The notes under the pieces are model-generated. The model saw only the letters and a program-made list of their open reading frames with translations, was not told the origin of the DNA and did no database searches. From assembly GCF_000021925.1 (NCBI RefSeq), contig NC_011830.1, positions 5,176,723-5,208,722 on the forward strand: a stretch of DNA of 32,000 nt, read 5' to 3'. The stretch is from Desulfitobacterium hafniense DCB-2 (GTDB lineage Bacteria; Bacillota; Desulfitobacteriia; Desulfitobacteriales; Desulfitobacteriaceae). Both the position numbers and the translations under genes were made by a program. Below are positions 2,898-30,522 of this stretch, one piece after another (positions within the stretch are counted from its first letter, which is position 1; each line of letters opens with the position of its first letter).

Positions 2898-2969
2898 TGG
2901 CGGGGAGTACGGGAGTTTCACCCGCCTGCACGAATTTAGAGTCCGTGTGATCTATTCGATCCACCCCCC
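2898..2969 (-). tRNA. pylT: tRNA-Pyl (anticodon CUA), CCA encoded
   Basis: The reverse complement reads GGGGGGTGGATCGAATAGATCACACGGACTCTAAATTCGTGCAGGCGGGTGAAACTCCCGTACTCCCCGCCA. It folds with the tRNA-Pyl hallmarks: one base between the acceptor and D stems, a 5-nt D loop without GG, a 6-bp anticodon stem, loop CUCUAAA (anticodon CUA), a 3-nt variable loop, and a T loop UGAAACU lacking TTC. Confidence 0.93.
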
Positions 2970-2985
2970 AGGACTTTTTATACTA

Positions 2986-3114
2986 CAGAAAGTATAAGCT
3001 TGCGCTATATACTTTCTAAGCATAAGTGCAACCAGCGATTTCGCCTCATTTGCAAGCATCGGTTTAAGGCAACAAGTGCGAAGACAGTGTCTTCGTAGCG
3101 AAACCGGGTTTTCT
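2986..3114 (+). repeat. Copy A of a conserved structured intergenic element (129 nt); the inverted copy is at 24295..24398
   Basis: Three blocks are shared with the reverse complement of 24295..24398: cagaaagtata (11/11), agcataagtgcaaccagcgatttcgcc (25/27) and gcgaaaccgggttttct (16/17). Internal 10-bp hairpin: 2987-2996 pairs with 3008-3017. An extra 7-bp hairpin at 3079-3095 is absent from copy B. The strand label is relative only. Confidence 0.85.
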
Positions 3115-3160
3115 ATACAATACTGCAATTTTTATGCCAAAGGCTCCAAGGAACACAGCA

Positions 3161-7129: not shown

Positions 7130-7423
7130 TCACCCTTGGAACGTTTCTTTGTCAATGATCCCGATAACCACAGCATCGATGGGAGCGCGCTGATCCTCCA
7201 GGCTTTGCCGAGCCGATGAGCCGCTGGCGATCATGACAATTTCCGTTTCTCCTGCTCCGATGCGATCGGCTGCAATCAGGGTATTTCCGTATTTCTCAAA
7301 GCGGGGTCTCCCGCTCTCTTCATAAGTTAAGGTCACCGGTTGTACTACAAGGAATTTAAACCCTTTTAAAGCTTCTTCTTTTCGTGTTGACCAGACATTC
7401 CCCAAAACATAGGCCAAGATCAT
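7130..7423 (-). CDS. eutN: BMC vertex (pentamer) protein, EutN/CcmL family
   Basis: 97 aa. Starts MILAYVLGNVWSTRK and has a ...DAVVIGIID C-terminus, both typical of EutN/CcmL. Confidence 0.8.
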   Translation of the reverse strand: MILAYVLGNVWSTRKEEALKGFKFLVVQPVTLTYEESGRPRFEKYGNTLIAADRIGAGETEIVMIASGSSARQSLEDQRAPIDAVVIGIIDKETFQG

Positions 7424-7438
7424 GACTGCTCCTCCGTC

Positions 7439-8140
7439 TTACGCCTTAATTTGTTGCTCACACGCCAAGACATAGAATGCGCTTGACAGGCGATTAAGCG
7501 CCTGAACAAGATCAACCCGGCTGCACTCTCCATTCGTATCCGTAAAGGCCCGGTTAGCGTACAGTTCTACTTCGCGGATTTTAGCCCTGAGTTGGTGGAG
7601 CTTGATGACAGTCCCGCCCTGCTTATAGCTCAGGGGGGAATGTGACACGCCATAATATTGATGGGGATAATGAGAACGTTCCCTGATCTCGTCTGCTGTC
7701 AGTCCCCAAAGGGTTTTAAATTCAAAGGGCTGCCTTTTGACTTCGGCCGCCATAATATTCCGGGCAAATACTGCCACTTCCTCTAACTTTCTGACCAATT
7801 CCAACTCCCCCATGGCCTGAAGGCCTATTTGGGTATCGATCAGCAGGGTTTGAAAAAGATCCAGTTGTCCACGCAGAGCAATGACCGGATGATTTTTGCT
7901 GACCAGTTCATTTTGATATAAATGGGTCATTTGTTCCGGCTTGCCGCCTTTTAAATTAGTTTTTTGGGGTAAAGCCTTTTTAACTGCTGTTCCTGCCTTG
8001 TCTTCCAGTTGAATCTGTATTTGTTTGGAGCGGACAAAATCCCGTGCTAAAGGTGTGAGCACACTCCCCTCCGGAAGTGTGATGATTGTCCCTTTGGTCT
8101 TTTGCCAGATTTCCCGCAGCTCCCTTTCTGTGATGATCAT
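7439..8140 (-). CDS. ATP:cob(I)alamin adenosyltransferase, EutT/PduO-like (COG4812 type)
   Basis: The C-terminal helical bundle carries an ALNRLSSAFYVLA motif like the YLNRLSD.LFVLAR of PduO-type ATRs. The N-terminal LTPLARDFVRSKQI module is seen in eut-associated adenosyltransferases. Position within the eut operon supports the call. Confidence 0.6.
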   Translation of the reverse strand: MIITERELREIWQKTKGTIITLPEGSVLTPLARDFVRSKQIQIQLEDKAGTAVKKALPQKTNLKGGKPEQMTHLYQNELVSKNHPVIALRGQLDLFQTLLIDTQIGLQAMGELELVRKLEEVAVFARNIMAAEVKRQPFEFKTLWGLTADEIRERSHYPHQYYGVSHSPLSYKQGGTVIKLHQLRAKIREVELYANRAFTDTNGECSRVDLVQALNRLSSAFYVLACEQQIKA

Positions 8141-10506: not shown

Positions 10507-12489
10507 TCAGTCTGCAAGGGATTGATAAATTACGCCGCCTTCCACATCATGAGCCATCGGAGCGCCGGCTAAATGGCAGAGTGTTGGCACAACATCGACG
10601 ATGCGAACCCGGCGATTGATAACCTCACCCTGTTTCACTCCCGCGCCCGCCATCATAAAGAGGCATTTTAAGGAGTATCCATTCAGACTCATATTGCTTA
10701 ACCCATTGCCATGGGTTCTGTTAAATTCGGGCTCCATCATATAGAAGATATCTCCGCAGTGGGGGCCTCCCATATTTAAGTACTCCATATCCGACCGATT
10801 CAAGGCTAAGCTGATCACCCGCTTGCCCGTTTGCGGATCTCTGTAGGCGTATAAATCGTCAATGATCCTGCGAACAAGGTCATCATAATCTTTAGGATCC
10901 ACTATCCCCTGAGGGTCTCTTCCTTTGAGATTGATGTAAATATAGGTGGCACGCTGGGCAACAGCCTGGGTATTTTCCCAATCGATTTCCACTTTACCTT
11001 TGACTTCTTTAAGCTTGGTGTAGCCCAATTCCCCCAGTACACCCACATTAAATCCCCACATATCCCCGATCAAGGGATGAATGATATGACGATCTCTGCC
11101 AATGGCCGCGTGATCGGAAGCGATCACCACCGTTGTCTCCTCATCGAATAATTTCATCATTTTGCCAATATAAGTATCCGTTATCTGGTACATTTTGAGT
11201 ATAATCGCCTGATAGCGCTCATAATTCGGTGTTGTGGCCGGTATGGTATAATCGAGATAGAAATGATTCAGCATATCAATACCGTGAATATGGCTGCAGA
11301 AGAGATCCCATTCCTTATGTTTCAGGAGATATTCCTGAGCTTTGACCTGCCATTGATACATTTCTTCCATGGTCTCCAGGACGATGGTATCCGCGATATC
11401 ATTATGACGATCAAAGTTCGAGGGCTGCATCATCGGGCCCACCGCTTTGTACAGTTCCTCACCGATTTCCAGGGGGCTGAAATAGTTTTGCGGCTTCAGG
11501 TCCAGAGCAAAAGAGTAATAGAACTTCATACTCCTGCCCTCGGCAGCCAGTTCTACCAGCTTGACTTTATAGGCAACCGGTTTGTTTTCCCCTTTATAAT
11601 GGTAGCTGTCATAGATCCAATCACTCCACCCATTGATCACGACCTCACCGATGGGCTTTTCATCCTGCTTATTCACAAATATCTGCAATTTATTGTAGTT
11701 CTTTTCATCATCGGCGACGATTAAGCCATAGCGCCTTGTCTGGCCCTCATTCACAGTGAGCACGACTTCCTTGGCCCCGGCCGGTGCCTTGGCCCACCCC
11801 TGGGCCGCCTTGATCGGGGCAATGACGCGGTCGCATTTTGCCGAATCAGCCTCCTCTTCACTTCCCCCTTCTGCCGTGACGCAGCCGGGGTGCTGATACC
11901 CAAAGCCGTCAAAATTCTTGATCTCTGCTTTCAGCTCCGAAACCTCGCCCTCAACGCGGCAATCCGTACCGCTAAGGTCAGCTTCATGAGGTATTACCTG
12001 AATGGGAAAATCACCTTCGCTGCATTCAAAAATCTTTTCGTAGTCGATATAACCTCTAAGGTTACTGAACATGCTGGTGCCATCCACAACAATAGCATTA
12101 GGGTTGGTTGGAGGCCATGAGGTGGGATAATTGAAGATAATACTCTTTTTGCCGGCCCGATCGAAGGCATCCCAGATATACTCCGCCTTACAAAGCTCTG
12201 AATTCCAGCCAAAGTCCAGGATGTCCAGGGGATTTCCCAGCGTATGGTTCCAGAAGCAGGTAATGCCATGGGTATTTGGCCAGGCTCCCGTTGCCAGGGA
12301 AGCCCAGTTCGGGGGGGTAATCGTGGGCAAAGCCCCCTGCATACCGAGATCCTCGGTCACAACACCCGATTCCATGAACTTTTGGAAATTGGGTAATTTA
12401 CCTTCCGCAATCAATTTCTTCATGAACATCGGATCAGCGCCATCTAAACCAAGCAACGCAATTTTTTTAGCTTTTCCGTAGCATTTCAT
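10507..12489 (-). CDS. Alkaline-phosphatase-superfamily enzyme (type I phosphodiesterase / nucleotide pyrophosphatase-like), cytoplasmic, ~660 aa
   Basis: Metal and nucleophile motifs are present: LLGLDGADP, LPTITPPNWASLATG, VIASDHAA, THGNG. No signal peptide. I moved the start to ATG 12489 because GGAGG (12502..12498) lies 8 nt upstream of it, whereas the track start at 12510 has no RBS. Confidence 0.7.
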   Translation of the reverse strand: MKCYGKAKKIALLGLDGADPMFMKKLIAEGKLPNFQKFMESGVVTEDLGMQGALPTITPPNWASLATGAWPNTHGITCFWNHTLGNPLDILDFGWNSELCKAEYIWDAFDRAGKKSIIFNYPTSWPPTNPNAIVVDGTSMFSNLRGYIDYEKIFECSEGDFPIQVIPHEADLSGTDCRVEGEVSELKAEIKNFDGFGYQHPGCVTAEGGSEEEADSAKCDRVIAPIKAAQGWAKAPAGAKEVVLTVNEGQTRRYGLIVADDEKNYNKLQIFVNKQDEKPIGEVVINGWSDWIYDSYHYKGENKPVAYKVKLVELAAEGRSMKFYYSFALDLKPQNYFSPLEIGEELYKAVGPMMQPSNFDRHNDIADTIVLETMEEMYQWQVKAQEYLLKHKEWDLFCSHIHGIDMLNHFYLDYTIPATTPNYERYQAIILKMYQITDTYIGKMMKLFDEETTVVIASDHAAIGRDRHIIHPLIGDMWGFNVGVLGELGYTKLKEVKGKVEIDWENTQAVAQRATYIYINLKGRDPQGIVDPKDYDDLVRRIIDDLYAYRDPQTGKRVISLALNRSDMEYLNMGGPHCGDIFYMMEPEFNRTHGNGLSNMSLNGYSLKCLFMMAGAGVKQGEVINRRVRIVDVVPTLCHLAGAPMAHDVEGGVIYQSLAD

Positions 12490-14284: not shown

Positions 14285-14326
14285 AATGAACCACTAAAGG
14301 AAGCCCTGTTCCTTTAGTGGTTCATT
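14285..14326 (-). terminator. Hairpin terminator after mttB
   Basis: 17-bp perfect stem aatgaaccactaaagga / tcctttagtggttcatt with an 8-nt loop, 13 nt after the TAA-TGA double stop. The U-tract is weak (AGGAAAACUUUU). Confidence 0.55.
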
Positions 14327-14338
14327 GTTAAGCAATCA

Positions 14339-15829
14339 TTATATCAATGATCTGGCAACTCCATATTCATCCTCAGTCTCCTCCACGATCGAGCGCAGCG
14401 TGGCCGCTATCTTTTCCGGCAGAGGCTCAGGGGTATAATTCTCCAGTATGGAGATGGCCTCCTCATAGGCCCTTTGGGTGAAGTCTTTGGCCCCGGCAGC
14501 CAGCCAATTCTCCCTCATCGACCGGTCTACGAGCTTGCTCTGGGACTGTGTTCTCATATGGGCATAGGTATGATCTTCGCTAATGAAGTTGCCAGCGGTA
14601 CCTACCGACTTGATAACATCCACTGCGAGGGTCTCGTCCGTAACACTGATCCCACCGACCGCCTTTTTAATCATCCTGGCCATCTCATTATCCATCAGCA
14701 TTTGAGCATAATCAAAGGTGATGCCGAGTTCCAGCATACCGGCGCCATAAATCAGATTGGCACCGGCTAAGGCGGTTAAGAACCCAGTCAGAGTAAATTC
14801 ATGACTTGCCTGGGCATCGGGAATCTTGCTGTCTACCTATCCACCGGCAACCCAGCTGGGCAAATTATAATATTGGGCCAGTTTCGCCACTCCGGCATTG
14901 ATCATGCCCAGTTCAGGGGAACCCACCGGCGCAGTCATATTTTTCATATCCATAATCGTTGTGGAACTGCCGTAGAGAACAGGTGCCCCCTTGCTGGTCA
15001 GCTGGCTGAGCACGATGGCCCCCAGCACCTCACAATTATGAGTAACCAAGGTTCCCGCCAAAGTGATGGCAGACGTCGCTCCGGACATTCCCATCGATAA
15101 CATATTGACCGGAATACCTGCCCGCGCGCCTTCGATAATGACCTCAGAAGCATGATTAACTATCTGCAGGGGACTGGTTGGACAAATATTGCAGGAGAAA
15201 AGGGGCCGTTCCCGCAGCTTATCCTCGCCACCGGCGACGGCCGCCGCCATCTTTAAAACCTTCTTAAAATTGCGCCCGCCTTCAACACCTATAAACACAT
15301 GTTTGGAAGTGTTATTAAAAATGACTTCTGCATTATGCACAACCGCCACACTGGGATGAATATCCTGTGGCGCCACCGGTCTCAGCACCGCATCCATCTG
15401 ATCCATGGCATCACAGAAACGGGTGATATTGGCCACATCCCGCCTTGTGGTTTTCCTATACTCTTTCGTGTAGGGATCAATGATGGAAACACCTTCACCA
15501 AAGTTGATAAACCCAACCCGTTTGCCTCCCAAAACAATATCATTTTTGGGATTTCTCCCCGCCAGCACAAGGGTGCTGGGGGCTGATTGTATGGCATCCT
15601 CCACTAAATATTGGGGAATCTTTACTACCTTCGTTTTAAAATCAACTCTGGCGCCGCCTTCAGAGAAAATCTCCAAGGCTTCCTGGCTTTCGATTTTTAG
15701 TCCTGTATACTCCAAAACTTCAAGGGTACTCGTGTGGATGGCATAGAGTTCTTCATCGGAAAATCCGGCAAGCCCAAAGCCTTCCACCCGGGCAACGCCC
15801 GCCTGAACCATTGATCTCAACCTGGCCAC
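14339..15829 (-). CDS. mttB: Trimethylamine:corrinoid methyltransferase MttB, 496 codons, with an in-frame UAG (pyrrolysine) at codon 331 (14839..14837)
   Basis: Track ORFs 14837..15829 and 14339..14737 are in the same frame. The 33 codons between the TAG and the second ORF's first Met ([33 protein letters not shown]) align with the uninterrupted paralog next door. GTG start behind an AAGGAGG RBS. Confidence 0.88.
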
Positions 15830-21904: not shown

Positions 21905-21920
21905 GCCCCCGCTAAAAAGG

Positions 21921-21956
21921 CCTGTGCTCTTGCGTTATAAACGCCTGGAGCACAGG
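21921..21956 (+). terminator. Terminator after the ATPase gene
   Basis: 9-bp stem cctgtgctc / gagcacagg followed by tctttt. The loop is long (18 nt). Confidence 0.5.
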
Positions 21957-22171
21957 TCTTTTAAATTACCTTTTGGGTCAACTTAGGTTGAAATATTCAG
22001 CTAAAAGGGCTTAATCTTTAAATGTGGTAAAATATAGCTTAATGCTTTTTATATTTGTTAATGCGTTAGAGTATAATGGATATAAGTGGCATTGTCTCAA
22101 CTTCATCTACTGAGTGAATAAGCATAATTATAACCTCAACCCATTAAAAATATTTTTGGAGGGATAAGAAA

Positions 22172-22840
22172 ATGAGAAAAATGAGCTATGTTTTCTTCAT
22201 CATGCTGGTTGCAGCCAGCCTCATGTCAGGGTGCGCCAAAGAGGCTCTACCCGAAGCCGAAGCTAATCTCCCCAGTGCTCCGTCCATGACCCAACCACTG
22301 GAACAGGCTTTAAAACTGTCTGATGAAGAACTGGTTGACAACTACTGCGCCGGCATCGACCTCGTGTTGGCCGATAATTTGCTGTTTGCCCAGGCCAAAG
22401 ATATTCCTTCAGAAACCTTATACAGTTTTTTTTGCTACATAACCAATTCGAGCGAAGAGAACATTCAGGAACAATGGTATAATAAAACCGATGATAAATA
22501 CCATGTGCCGATAGCCGACATCGAAGCTGTATTAGATCGCTATTTTGACGGCTACCATTTCGACCCCGCTCAATTAATCCCCTATTTTGCCGAAGCCTCC
22601 CCTCCTCAGCACGATGTCTACCAGCCGCAGACCAAGGAGATTGTCATCGGTGGACTGGGAGGATTCGGCGGGGAACGTTTCCCGAAATTAGCTGCCAAAG
22701 AACAGCTCAGTGATGATACCCTGAAGCTGACCGTCGATTATTATGATGATCAATATACAGAGGTTTTCTATACTAAAGCCTATACTATTCGATTTACTGA
22801 AGAAGGCTATCAATATCTATCCATTCAAAAAGTGGAGTAG
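22172..22840 (+). CDS. Lipoprotein of unknown function
   Basis: Signal peptide with lipobox (MLVAASLMSG-C). RBS ggaggg. The stop is TAG. Confidence 0.7.
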   Translation: MRKMSYVFFIMLVAASLMSGCAKEALPEAEANLPSAPSMTQPLEQALKLSDEELVDNYCAGIDLVLADNLLFAQAKDIPSETLYSFFCYITNSSEENIQEQWYNKTDDKYHVPIADIEAVLDRYFDGYHFDPAQLIPYFAEASPPQHDVYQPQTKEIVIGGLGGFGGERFPKLAAKEQLSDDTLKLTVDYYDDQYTEVFYTKAYTIRFTEEGYQYLSIQKVE

Positions 22841-22978
22841 GGTATCTTTACTCCGCACTCATACCTTCACACATGCTAAAAAAGACCGGAGCACCACCAG
22901 CCCCGGTCTTACTCTATTAATTCAATACAATAGACTTTTTGCTTTCAGCTGGAGCACTATTACCTTCCCACCTAAGAA

Positions 22979-24229
22979 CTATAGCTCACTGAAATCCAAG
23001 GTGGCAAAATAATCCTCCAGTGTTTCCGCCCGGCGGATCAGCTTCACACTGCCATCAGCCTGCAGCAATAACTCAGCATGACGCAGCTTGCCATTGTAGT
23101 TGAAGCCCATGGCATGCCCGTGAGCACCTGTATCATGAATCACCAGAGTATCCCCGATCTCGATTCTGGGCAGTTCCCGGTCCACGGCAAATTTATCGTT
23201 GTTCTCACATAAGCTTCCGGTCACATCATAGATGTGGTCCTCAGGCAGGTCTTCCTTACCCATGACGGTGATATGGTGATAGGCGCCGTAGATTCCCGGG
23301 CGCATCAGATCGGACATGCTGGCATCGACACCGATATAATTTTTATACGTATCCTTGCGATGAAGGACTTTGGTCACCAAATAGCCGTAAGGTCCCGTTA
23401 TCATGCGGCCGCATTCCAGGCAGATGCGCAGGGGATCTAAGCCTTTGGCGACGATCTTCTCTTCGTAAACTTTGCGGACACCTTCTCCGATAGTTTCCAG
23501 ATTGACCGGCTCTTGTTCCGGACGGTAGGGGATGCCGATTCCGCCGCCAAAATTCACAAATTCCAGGCGGATTCCCAGTTTTTCTTTCAGCTCTATGGCC
23601 AGATCAAACATCATCTCTGCTGTCTCGATGAAGAAATCCGGGTTCAGTTCATTGGAGATGATCATAGTATGGAGTCCGAAACGCTTCACCCCTTTGTCAC
23701 GAACGATCTCGTAAGCCTGGAATAACTGTTCCTTGGTCAAACCATATTTGGATTCTTCGGGGTTGCCGATAATGGCATTCCCCGCCCGCAGCGAACCGGG
23801 ATTATAGCGGAAGGAGAGCACCTCCGGCAGGCCGGTATGCTTTTCCAGATAATCAATATGGGTAATATCATCTAAATTGATGATCGCCCATAAATCCTTT
23901 GCTTTTTGAAATTCCTCAGCAGGGGTATTGTTGGAGGTAAGCATAATGTTCTCCTCGGTGATCCCCGCTTTTTCCGCCAGGATCAGTTCCGCCAAAGAAC
24001 TGCAGTCGGCTCCGAAACCCTCTTCCCCCAGGATCTTCAGAATATAGGGATTAGGAAGAGCTTTGACGGCAAAATACTCCTTAAACCCCGGCGCCCAGGC
24101 AAATGCTGCCTGCAGTCTTTGGGCGTTTTTGCGAATGGCTTCCTCATCATAAATATGAAAAGGGGTACCATAGTCCTCCATGATCTTCTGCAACTGCTCT
24201 TGATTAAAAGGTAAGTTTTTTACTGCCAT
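22979..24229 (-). CDS. lysA: Diaminopimelate decarboxylase (PLP-dependent, Orn/DAP/Arg decarboxylase family 2)
   Basis: PLP-Lys context YFAVKALPNP, GGGIGIPY, and CENNDKF near the C-terminus. Preceded by a lysine riboswitch. The stop is TAG. Confidence 0.85.
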   Translation of the reverse strand: MAVKNLPFNQEQLQKIMEDYGTPFHIYDEEAIRKNAQRLQAAFAWAPGFKEYFAVKALPNPYILKILGEEGFGADCSSLAELILAEKAGITEENIMLTSNNTPAEEFQKAKDLWAIINLDDITHIDYLEKHTGLPEVLSFRYNPGSLRAGNAIIGNPEESKYGLTKEQLFQAYEIVRDKGVKRFGLHTMIISNELNPDFFIETAEMMFDLAIELKEKLGIRLEFVNFGGGIGIPYRPEQEPVNLETIGEGVRKVYEEKIVAKGLDPLRICLECGRMITGPYGYLVTKVLHRKDTYKNYIGVDASMSDLMRPGIYGAYHHITVMGKEDLPEDHIYDVTGSLCENNDKFAVDRELPRIEIGDTLVIHDTGAHGHAMGFNYNGKLRHAELLLQADGSVKLIRRAETLEDYFATLDFSEL

Positions 24230-24294
24230 ATTCTGATCCTCCCCTATATACTATAGACTACCCACCGCTAGAGATTTTAAAGTTTGGTTGCTAA

Positions 24295-24398
24295 AGAAAA
24301 CCCGGCTTCGCTGTGCCTTTTAATCACGCATCCAAAAAGGCGAAGTCGTTGGTTGCACTTATGCTGAAGGAAAGTATGCAGCAAAGGTATACTTTCTG
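24295..24398 (-). repeat. Copy B (104 nt) of the structured element seen at 2986..3114; here it lies inside the lysA 5' leader
   Basis: See copy A. It lies between the L-box terminator (24404-24441) and the lysA RBS. The hairpin is 24370-24377 paired with 24389-24396. Confidence 0.85.
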
Positions 24399-24403
24399 AC
24401 AGT

Positions 24404-24441
24404 GAAAAAAACGGCTGCGAGTACCCTCGCAACCGTTTTTT
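24404..24441 (-). terminator. Intrinsic terminator (expression platform) of the lysine riboswitch
   Basis: The minus strand reads aaaaaacggttgcgag-ggta-ctcgcagccg-ttttttt. The stem is complete on the minus strand (one G-U pair), whereas the plus strand would have a C-A mismatch. Confidence 0.8.
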
Positions 24442-24489
24442 AAGGCAAAATCAGCTTAAGCCTCAAACTTCACGAGATAGCACTCCACC

Positions 24490-24645
24490 GGAGTCCCGGT
24501 GACAGTCTTACATTTTTTCAATGGAAGACCAGCTAAGACCCTTTGTCCTGGGCCTTTGCTTCGGCAGCGATTCCTTTCCTTATCCGTCCTAGCCTGACCC
24601 GCTCGGGATAATTACTCTTAATACACTGCGCCTCTATCATTCACT
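24490..24645 (-). promoter_or_regulatory. Lysine riboswitch (L-box)
   Basis: The minus strand contains, in the canonical order, GATAGAGGCGC, AAGAGTA, GGAAAGG, CGCTGCCGAAG, AGCTGG and AGACTGTCAC. This closely parallels the remembered B. subtilis lysC leader (GTCGCCGAAGCAAA...GCTGG...AATGTAAGGCTGTCA). Confidence 0.85.
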
Positions 24646-24662
24646 CTATGAATTATCTATAC

Positions 24663-24691
24663 ATTATGGAACAAGATGTTACCCTTGTCAA
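24663..24691 (-). promoter_or_regulatory. SigA-type promoter for the L-box-lysA transcript
   Basis: TTGACA (24691..24686), a 17-nt spacer, then CATAAT (24668..24663), ~20 nt upstream of the riboswitch. Confidence 0.7.
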
Positions 24692-30304: not shown

Positions 30305-30465
30305 TACGGGAGAAGGGCACGGCCCGCCGAAGAAGTTGAAACTTTCAGGTGACTGGAATAAGTCAGGGACCGTAAATTGACAGCACTCTGGAGAGACTCG
30401 ATTAGAGCGCCGAAGGGGCAATACAATGACGTGTTGTTAAATCTCTCAGGCAAAAGGACAGAGAA
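30305..30465 (+). promoter_or_regulatory. Tandem glycine riboswitch
   Basis: Aptamer 1: CGGGAGAA...CCCGCCGAAGAAG...CAGG...GGACCG. Aptamer 2: CTCTGGAGAG...GCGCCGAAGGGGCAA...CTCTCAGGCAAAAGGACAGAG. Followed by a terminator and a glycine/alanine symporter gene. Confidence 0.85.
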
Positions 30466-30522
30466 GGAACAGGGACTGCTACAGAGCAATCTCTTACTTT
30501 TGTACCTATCGTCCGAATATTC

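Follow-up and report, generated by a model that had tools for sequence, protein, structure and literature searches.

Two sequences that match each other in inverted orientation, one flanking the tRNA-Pyl gene pylT (copy A) and one in the leader of lysA (copy B), are very probably independent insertions from two subfamilies of a small, non-coding, hairpin-rich interspersed repeat that occurs in Desulfitobacteriaceae and has relatives in Bacillaceae. Both lie in the 32,000-nt stretch of Desulfitobacterium hafniense DCB-2 DNA that was analysed here (the window). The repeat is a non-autonomous dispersed element and represents a new, apparently undescribed family of a known kind of element. Seen in this way, the resemblance between the lysA leader and the pylT flank amounts to two insertions of a genomic parasite, and an attractive but wrong idea about it is removed. 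More generally, repeats of this type mimic structured RNAs, in that they covary and are found in leaders and next to RNA genes, and they will yield false riboswitch and small-RNA candidates unless masked. The family also shows cleanly how a small element can target the tails of terminators, with exact empty and filled alleles, tandems, and nesting.

Two inverted copies in the window

A repeat search of the whole window confirmed the inverted match between copy A and copy B, with arms at 2986-3046 and 24338-24398 (61 nt, 75%), and returned a second inverted arm pair at 3097-3117 and 24292-24312 (21 nt, 90%). These arms rank as the longest and the eighth-longest among the inverted pairs of the window. 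Pairwise alignment of the two copies reproduced the three blocks (11/11, 25/27, and 16/17) reported in the preliminary description of this DNA. Specifically, the first block, CAGAAAGTATA, agrees at 11/11 positions, the second, AGCATAAGTGCAACCA(G/A)CGA(T/C)TTCGCC, at 25/27, and the third, AGCGAA(A/G)CCGGGTTTTCT, contains a single mismatch. The T-A to C-G covariation described earlier (tttcgc/gcgaaa versus cttcgc/gcgaag) is visible in the same alignment, and the extra hairpin of copy A (3079-3095) is present as described. The 16-mer AGCATAAGTGCAACCA, which is invariant in the two copies, occurs twice in the window (3019-3034 on the + strand and 24350-24365 on the - strand), compared with 0.01 occurrences expected from shuffles, and a profile search of the window found no third copy of the repeat.

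The boundaries of copy A (2981-3117) and copy B (24292-24404) were set by comparison with ~190 other copies and one empty site (Table 1). Copy A is oriented against pylT, and copy B lies in sense orientation inside the lysA 5′ leader. The earlier spacing of 17 nt between copy A and the 5′ end of tRNA-Pyl is correct for position 2986; the true boundary at 2981 shortens it to 11 nt.

Table 1. Coordinates of copies A and B, their parts, and the adjoining features of the window
Feature	Position	Strand	Remarks
pylT (tRNA-Pyl, anticodon CTA)	2898-2969	-	ARAGORN; neighbour of copy A, outside the element
Target flank of copy A	2970-2980	+	AGGACTTTTTA; T-run ending in A, between pylT and copy A; fits the family-wide 5′ flank rule
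Copy A	2981-3117	+	137 nt; 11 nt from pylT; nhmmer E=2.3e-16
Copy A, 5′ end		+	TACTACAG
Copy A, hairpin 1	2987-2996/3008-3017	+	
Copy A, core	3020-3034	+	GCATAAGTGCAACCA
Copy A, long helix	3039-3044/3098-3103	+	extended by AACC (3030-3033) paired to GGTT in the tail
Copy A, optional 7-bp hairpin module	3079-3095	+	CGAAGACAGTGTCTTCG
Copy A, 3′ tail		+	GGGTTTTCTATA
lysA (diaminopimelate decarboxylase)	22979-24229	-	Pfam Orn_Arg_deC_N + Orn_DAP_Arg_deC; downstream of the riboswitch and copy B
Copy B	24292-24404	-	113 nt; CACTGTCAG...core (24365-24350)...GCGAAGCCGGGTTTTCTTTA; nhmmer E=1.3e-25
Intrinsic terminator of the lysine riboswitch	24405-24441	-	stem 24435-24412, U-run 24411-24405; terminator-like site reported on the complementary strand
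Lysine riboswitch aptamer (L-box)	24470-24644	-	Rfam RF00168, 114.8 bits, E=3.2e-30, full-length model match
Promoter-like TTGACA-17-CATAAT	24663-24691	-	precedes the lysine riboswitch

Anatomy of the repeat

The element is non-coding, measures ~85-190 nt (typical copies ~95-105 nt), and has a fixed polarity. Its 5′ end, TACTnnCAGAAAGTATA, is followed by hairpin 1 and then by the core, GCATAAGTGCAAC(C/T)A. A long GC-rich helix starts from the last bases of the core: AAC(C/T) is matched by (G/A)GTT in the tail, and the pairing continues as a 10-bp GC stem. The 3′ end reads GTTTTCT(T/A)(T/A)A and is built from a GC hairpin plus GTTTTCTTTA. Across the family, the 3′ part resembles an intrinsic terminator, as a GC-rich helix of 10-14 bp is followed by GUUUUCUUUA; in copies A and B this helix encloses a long branched loop, and a simple terminator scanner made no call. 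Among 158 copies found by their ends alone, the core is exact in 132, carries one to three changes in 19, and is missing in 7.

With respect to secondary structure, pairing was observed in 87.6% of cells in 39 diverse copies, versus 28-40% with slid partners, and ten pairs change on both sides, as exemplified by AAC(C/T)...(G/A)GTT (UA in 26 copies, CG in 11). These values indicate that the helices are selected, and the covariation to which the preliminary description drew attention is upheld as a property of the family as a whole. Folding z-scores for the pylT-sense strand are -4.0 for copy A and -4.5 for copy B, versus -2.7 and +0.1, respectively, on the other strand. When 120 copies were considered, neither strand was found to fold consistently better (68 versus 51, with a mean difference of 1 kcal/mol), so there is no evidence here for an RNA on one strand. 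The pairing data fit RNA as well as single-stranded or cruciform DNA and do not distinguish between them.

The extra hairpin of copy A had been interpreted as a variable stem. It is instead an optional module that takes up other positions in other copies: this GTGCGAAGACAGTGTCTTCG hairpin lies before the core in four of them (L013, L017, L020, and L030) and after the core in L028 and copy A. In at least four copies from separate loci (L011, L063, L078, L120, and L138), the 5′ arm is interrupted at the same point by a 57-nt module, ACTTCCATGAACCTGCCGATTCACAGGGAGGTATGAAAATGTAGTCCATTTTCGTAAGAA, and some longer copies hold short copies within their loop. Two candidates for a larger element were considered and rejected. 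A 58-nt left flank common to five loci is actually the internal 57-nt module, and the long downstream similarity of L080 and L158 reflects orthologous loci that contain the same remnant. As separate observations, the copy at the pylT site of L036 (~1250-1385) differs from window positions 3079-3095 by a double compensatory swap, GAAGAC/GTCTTC to GAAAGC/GCTTTC, in otherwise near-identical copies, and at L094 (~11588-11910) the long-helix loop of one copy harbours a nested small element of another kind, which has terminal inverted repeats (TAGTACAACGTTCGCTAA... / ...TTAGCGAACGTTGTACTA).

No coding variant was found among the ~190 copies. An autonomous coding version was sought among 24 metagenome copies that showed no obvious 3′ end within 400 nt, and these proved to be tail variants, contig ends, nested insertions, and truncated remnants. 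The view that the sequence belongs to no known Rfam family was also sustained: an Rfam scan gave no match over either copy at the gathering threshold, and only noise at E<=10 (copy A and the Natribacillus copies).

Dispersal and subfamilies

A 20-base core pattern matches 27 loci in GTDB representative genomes, none of them in a D. hafniense record. Seven of these loci are in one Desulfitobacterium MAG and six in another, and further loci are found in several Desulfosporosinus species and in two Bacillaceae genomes, Lentibacillus and Natribacillus. With a looser core pattern, the metagenome stretches matched number at least 120, and a single metagenome accounts for at least 26 matches. The flanking genes are unrelated (DivIVA, TsaD, SecDF, LUD/CCG protein, GlpP, ParB, PFOR, GGDEF, PheS, arginase, ArsR, NrtR, and others), and no functional relation was apparent among the genes neighbouring 20 sampled copies. 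The only proteins that recur near copies are histidine kinases, sigma-54 activators, ABC ATPases, MCPs, and aminotransferases, all of which are large paralogous families. A blastn search of 72,556 plasmids (PLSDB) with a Desulfosporosinus-type and a Bacillaceae-type copy returned no match, and neither did a pattern scan of viral contigs.

Across its full extent, copy B shares 93-94% identity with copies from other Desulfitobacterium species. For copy A, the best full-length match reaches 83%, and a Desulfosporosinus copy agrees with its 5′ half at 92.6%; the two copies of the window share 81% over 63 nt. Each is therefore closer to copies from other species than to its counterpart, and these identities indicate that A and B are independent insertions from two subfamilies and not duplicates of each other. 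Short, non-coding, multi-copy, located at unrelated intergenic sites, and polymorphic for insertion, the repeat has the features that define small non-autonomous interspersed repeats, MITE-like when the term is taken broadly.

A further arrangement was seen in Natribacillus halophilus (L032, 2930-3664), where a peroxiredoxin (AhpC/TSA) gene is flanked on both sides by copies in direct orientation. The one downstream of the gene lies close behind the stop codon with no hairpin between them, and may be the only terminator of that gene.

Presence/absence alleles at the lysA and pylT sites

Five contigs encode an identical LysA. Copy B is present in four, including AP008230 (AP008230.1), which we take to be strain Y51 and in which both LysA and the long PylS ORF are identical to those of the window, and is missing in the fifth, D. 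hafniense GCA_000379505.1. The empty allele is shorter by exactly the 113 nt of copy B. Its junction reads CGTTTTTTT/GCAACC, versus CGTTTTTTT/CACTGTCAG...GGGTTTTCTTTA/GCAACC in the filled allele (slashes mark the junctions), and the filled insert reads CACTG...TTCTTTA between CGTTTTTTT and GCAACC. The boundaries of this indel cannot be shifted, no base is duplicated, and the T-run is intact in empty and filled alleles alike.

At the pylT site, relatives were reached through EutA and PylS homologues. Two of these (L036 and L038) are filled, and a third (L037) is empty and reads ...TTGCAATTATATAAAAAGTCCT/pylT, without copy A; all three encode the same PylS, which is 96% identical to that of Y51. 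A base-exact empty/filled pair is available for lysA only, with the pylT pair blurred by nearby substitutions. No repeat copy lies within ~1.1 kb upstream of pylT in D. dehalogenans or in a D. meridiei-type organism. Both sites are presence/absence polymorphisms among close relatives.

Insertion at the end of T-runs

The sites occupied by the repeat follow a simple rule, which was derived from 126 unique sites. A T-rich 5′ flank is present in 87% of these, with the 5′ end of the element abutting the end of the T-run, and in 50% a hairpin (dG <= -8) plus T-run lies directly upstream; the random-window baseline for dG <= -8 is 25%, even without the requirement for a T-run. The commonest junction is TTTA/T. 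The base at -1 is variable (A 50%, T 29%, G 15%) and the last bases of the element are constant, which argues that no target is duplicated. Duplications of TTTA, TTTAT, or TA were each considered, and are incompatible with the lysA empty site and the variable -1 bases. Moreover, 20 copies lie directly behind the tail of another copy (TTTA/TACT), forming head-to-tail tandems, and the upstream gene is co-directional in 17/23 genome loci as judged from crude ORF calls.

These sites show a polar repeat that inserts one-way, exactly at the end of a T-run, usually the U-tract of an intrinsic terminator that is already there and has the same orientation, without target duplication. Its own tail can serve as the next target, giving rise to tandems, and optional and nested modules give the family its mosaic character. 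On this view, copy B landed behind the lysine-riboswitch terminator of lysA, and copy A at a T5A run 11 nt upstream of pylT.

The preliminary description had reported no L-box signature, which holds for the repeat itself; in the lysA leader, a complete lysine riboswitch (RF00168) had been overlooked. Copy B starts at the base directly after 24405, where the U-run of the riboswitch terminator ends. Although the riboswitch occupies the same leader as copy B, it is a separate feature located upstream (24644-24470), whereas the repeat sits behind the riboswitch terminator and is dispensable in another strain. The riboswitch, of canonical type, is the actual cis-regulator of lysA and fully accounts for lysine control. 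Copy B itself adds a helix resembling a terminator, behind the L-box terminator and ahead of the lysA ribosome-binding site, and termination at this point is probably incomplete, because strains carrying copy B exist.

A second riboswitch leader that has been invaded in parallel to that of lysA was observed in a Desulfitobacterium MAG (L021, 7279-7548), where the repeat (7436-7548) directly follows a SAM-riboswitch terminator (aptamer 7279-7382) and precedes the ORF that this riboswitch regulates. On the other side of lysA, the window strain contains an ~830-nt strain-specific segment (21905-22978) holding a 222-aa ORF (22172-22840, + strand) with no Pfam or NCBIfam match; in two other contigs with the same LysA, ~60 unrelated nucleotides are found instead.

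Regulatory and other readings of the repeat

Pyrrolysine is built from two lysines. This connection, together with the conserved, covarying helices and the sense orientation of copy B in the lysA 5′ leader, gave appeal to the reading favoured in the preliminary description, namely that structured RNAs, acting in cis in the lysA leader and as a divergent small RNA by pylT, tie pyrrolysine synthesis to the supply of lysine. Close relatives, however, have empty sites at both pylT and lysA, the pylT loci of other species lack the element, and well over 100 copies are found next to unrelated genes. A complete L-box is already in place at lysA, copies A and B come from different subfamilies, and folding stability shows no consistent strand preference. 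A regulatory RNA of this kind has next to no likelihood left and is largely refuted: a shared Pyl/Lys function is not supported as the basis of either placement. The preliminary description had named copies scattered over many unrelated loci without covariation as evidence against its interpretation. The scatter was found; the covariation is real and belongs to the whole family. The alternative proposal of a dispersed repeat, one of its three readings, is borne out by the occurrence over many genomes and by the polymorphic sites. Given the strong conservation of sequence and pairs, some copies may have been co-opted for a secondary role. Quite improbable, in our estimation, is an orientation-independent promoter or operator module that controls its neighbours through a sigma-70 promoter (TTGCAC-N16-TATAGC) or a weak sigma-54 site in TGGTTGCACTTATGCT. 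The pylT-sense strand of copy A does contain promoter-like hexamers (TTGCAC-16-TATAGC and TAGAAA-16-TATACT), and the core has the GG-N10-GC spacing that had been pointed out earlier. Nonetheless, the -10-like hexamer is confined to the subfamily of copy A and is no feature of the family, with ATGCAG (the version in copy B) or ATGCAA at this position in copy B and its relatives; the sigma-54 -24/-12 match goes little beyond GG and GC; the strand in question faces the 3′ end of the upstream co-directional gene at 17 of the 23 genome loci; and the element is missing from the same sites in relatives. The hallmarks of a sigma-54 promoter (-24 TGGCAC and -12 TTGCW at a steady position upstream of genes) were not found in the repeat family.

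The terminator-like 3′ part of the repeat gives rise to two further readings. A host-selected terminator or insulator cassette, SPRITE-like and not transposable, could have been spread by recombination and kept for its terminating function, and the 10-14 bp GC-rich helix followed by GUUUUCUUUA, the location of 17/23 copies behind a co-directional gene, and a Natribacillus copy found directly after the bcp stop codon with no other hairpin are all in line with such a role. This reading is nevertheless unlikely, since half of the copies immediately follow a terminator that makes another redundant, two copies separate an ORF from its riboswitch terminator, a place where constitutive termination would be harmful, and the exact indels, tandems, and nesting speak for active insertion. 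The coincidence of the 3′ boundary with the end of a terminator-like U-tract would also be expected of an RNA-mediated (retro-)mobile element whose DNA boundaries are transcript ends. We regard this as very improbable, as no internal promoter is conserved across subfamilies, no reverse transcriptase or group II intron domains were found (Rfam negative), and the TATACT -10-like box straddles the 5′ junction, such that a transcript would miss the first bases of the element.

In terms of the local effect of copy A, pylT is followed by pylSc and a radical-SAM pylB-like gene and preceded by eutABC, and copy A is placed between the eutA terminator and pylT. In Y51, pylT may owe part of its transcription to copy A, as an incidental effect of this position. 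No hairpin followed by a U-run is present on the pylT strand of copy A, and copy A should therefore not block read-through from eutA toward pylT. The idea that the insertion split a native pylT promoter was set aside as speculation; the empty allele contains no convincing sigma-70 match.

Mobility and relation to known elements

No autonomous protein-coding copy or transposase was found in 1.1 Mb of flanking DNA, so we infer mobilisation from polymorphism and dispersal only. Likewise, tblastn of the 1.1 Mb of flanks with IS200 TnpA (an approximate query) gave no match. The repeat lacks inverted termini and target duplication, inserts at a target like its own 3′ terminus, has a GC hairpin ~11 nt before that terminus, and forms head-to-tail tandems. 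On the model of IS200/IS605 or IS91/Helitron elements, these traits would suit a strand-specific HUH-type enzyme that works on single-stranded DNA and is supplied in trans, a rather doubtful possibility. A broader model, also rather doubtful, is offered tentatively, in which Firmicutes-wide mosaic elements home, one-way and without duplicating the target, to U-tract ends, including those of riboswitch and attenuator terminators, are moved by an HUH-type or other enzyme encoded elsewhere, and thereby rewire leaders (lysA and the SAM-box gene) and the pylT upstream region.

Two hallmarks of classical MITEs, terminal inverted repeats and target-site duplications, are not seen in the repeat. Its left end, TACTAACAGAAAGTAT, and the reverse complement of its right end, TAAAGAAAACCCGG, can be aligned only when gaps are placed around AGAAA, and there is no target-site duplication in the exact empty/filled pair at lysA. 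In the 1.1 Mb of flanks, no autonomous IS sharing the ends of the repeat was seen. Derivatives of IS200/IS605 (PATEs; REP/RAYT) lack terminal inverted repeats and target-site duplications, have subterminal hairpins and a fixed polarity, and insert 3′ of a short T-rich sequence. The repeat is PATE-like in all of these respects, with insertion 3′ of a T-run ending mostly in A; in contrast to IS200/IS605 ends, its left and right hairpins are dissimilar, and no TnpA/TnpB partner sharing its ends was found in the 1.1 Mb of flanks. Elements of the IS91/ISCR and Helitron type use a target tetranucleotide like the one at their 3′ terminus, carry a GC hairpin ~11 nt inside that terminus, make no target-site duplication, and form tandems. 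The repeat corresponds here too: its target, TTTA, resembles the 3′ terminus of the repeat, its GC hairpin is set back from that terminus by ~11 nt, and it forms tandems but no duplication; the likeness is one of architecture alone, as the repeat is only ~100 nt long and no Rep/Y2 transposase was found. Class C (IIC) group II introns insert just downstream of intrinsic terminator stem-loops, in the orientation of the terminator. The repeat resembles them in its placement at terminator tails and differs in its size (85-190 nt) and in the absence of ribozyme domains and reverse transcriptase (Rfam negative).

The nearest described analogues are the pneumococcal SPRITE and bcr1 of the Bacillus cereus group. 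SPRITEs are ~100 nt, non-coding, and dispersed, consist of a stem and a U-rich terminator-like tail, and are enriched just downstream of genes, with no established target duplication and no matching IS (PMC3049150). Size, terminator-like tail, and gene-downstream position are thus shared with the repeat. SPRITEs are AT-rich, with an 18-bp duplex, and are confined to pneumococcus and S. mitis, whereas the repeat, as far as the descriptions allow the two to be set apart, has a 5′ hairpin, a conserved core, a GC-rich helix, precise abutment to terminators, tandems and mosaics, and a range covering Desulfitobacteriaceae and Bacillaceae. The bcr1 repeat (group A) is small, with two hairpins and compensatory changes, is patchy between close strains, and has a T-rich TTTAT motif at its ends; it is flanked by 5-bp direct repeats and is reported to be restricted to the B. 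cereus group, with plasmid-borne copies reported (PMC3184786, PMC6542083). Compensatory changes, patchy distribution, and TTTA/T as the commonest junction are bcr1-like traits of the repeat. Unlike bcr1, the repeat has no direct repeats at the clean lysA site. It gave no blastn match in the 72,556 plasmids, an indirect comparison that depends on plasmid-borne bcr1 copies being among them. The searchable literature yielded no relevant paper on the core sequence and none on Desulfitobacterium in combination with MITEs.

Other features of the window

Beyond the repeat, a match to PYLIS_3, the mttB pyrrolysine insertion sequence, was found at 14740-14839 on the - strand (95.2 bits), between the same-strand ORFs 14837-15829 and 14339-14737. 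This suggests that the two ORFs form one mttB-type methyltransferase gene that is read through an in-frame UAG. Just downstream of these ORFs, a perfect 18-bp inverted repeat with a 6-nt spacer (AATGAACCACTAAAGGAA / TTCCTTTAGTGGTTCATT) is located at 14285-14326. A glycine riboswitch aptamer (RF00504, 62.3 bits) is found at 30378-30471 on the + strand.
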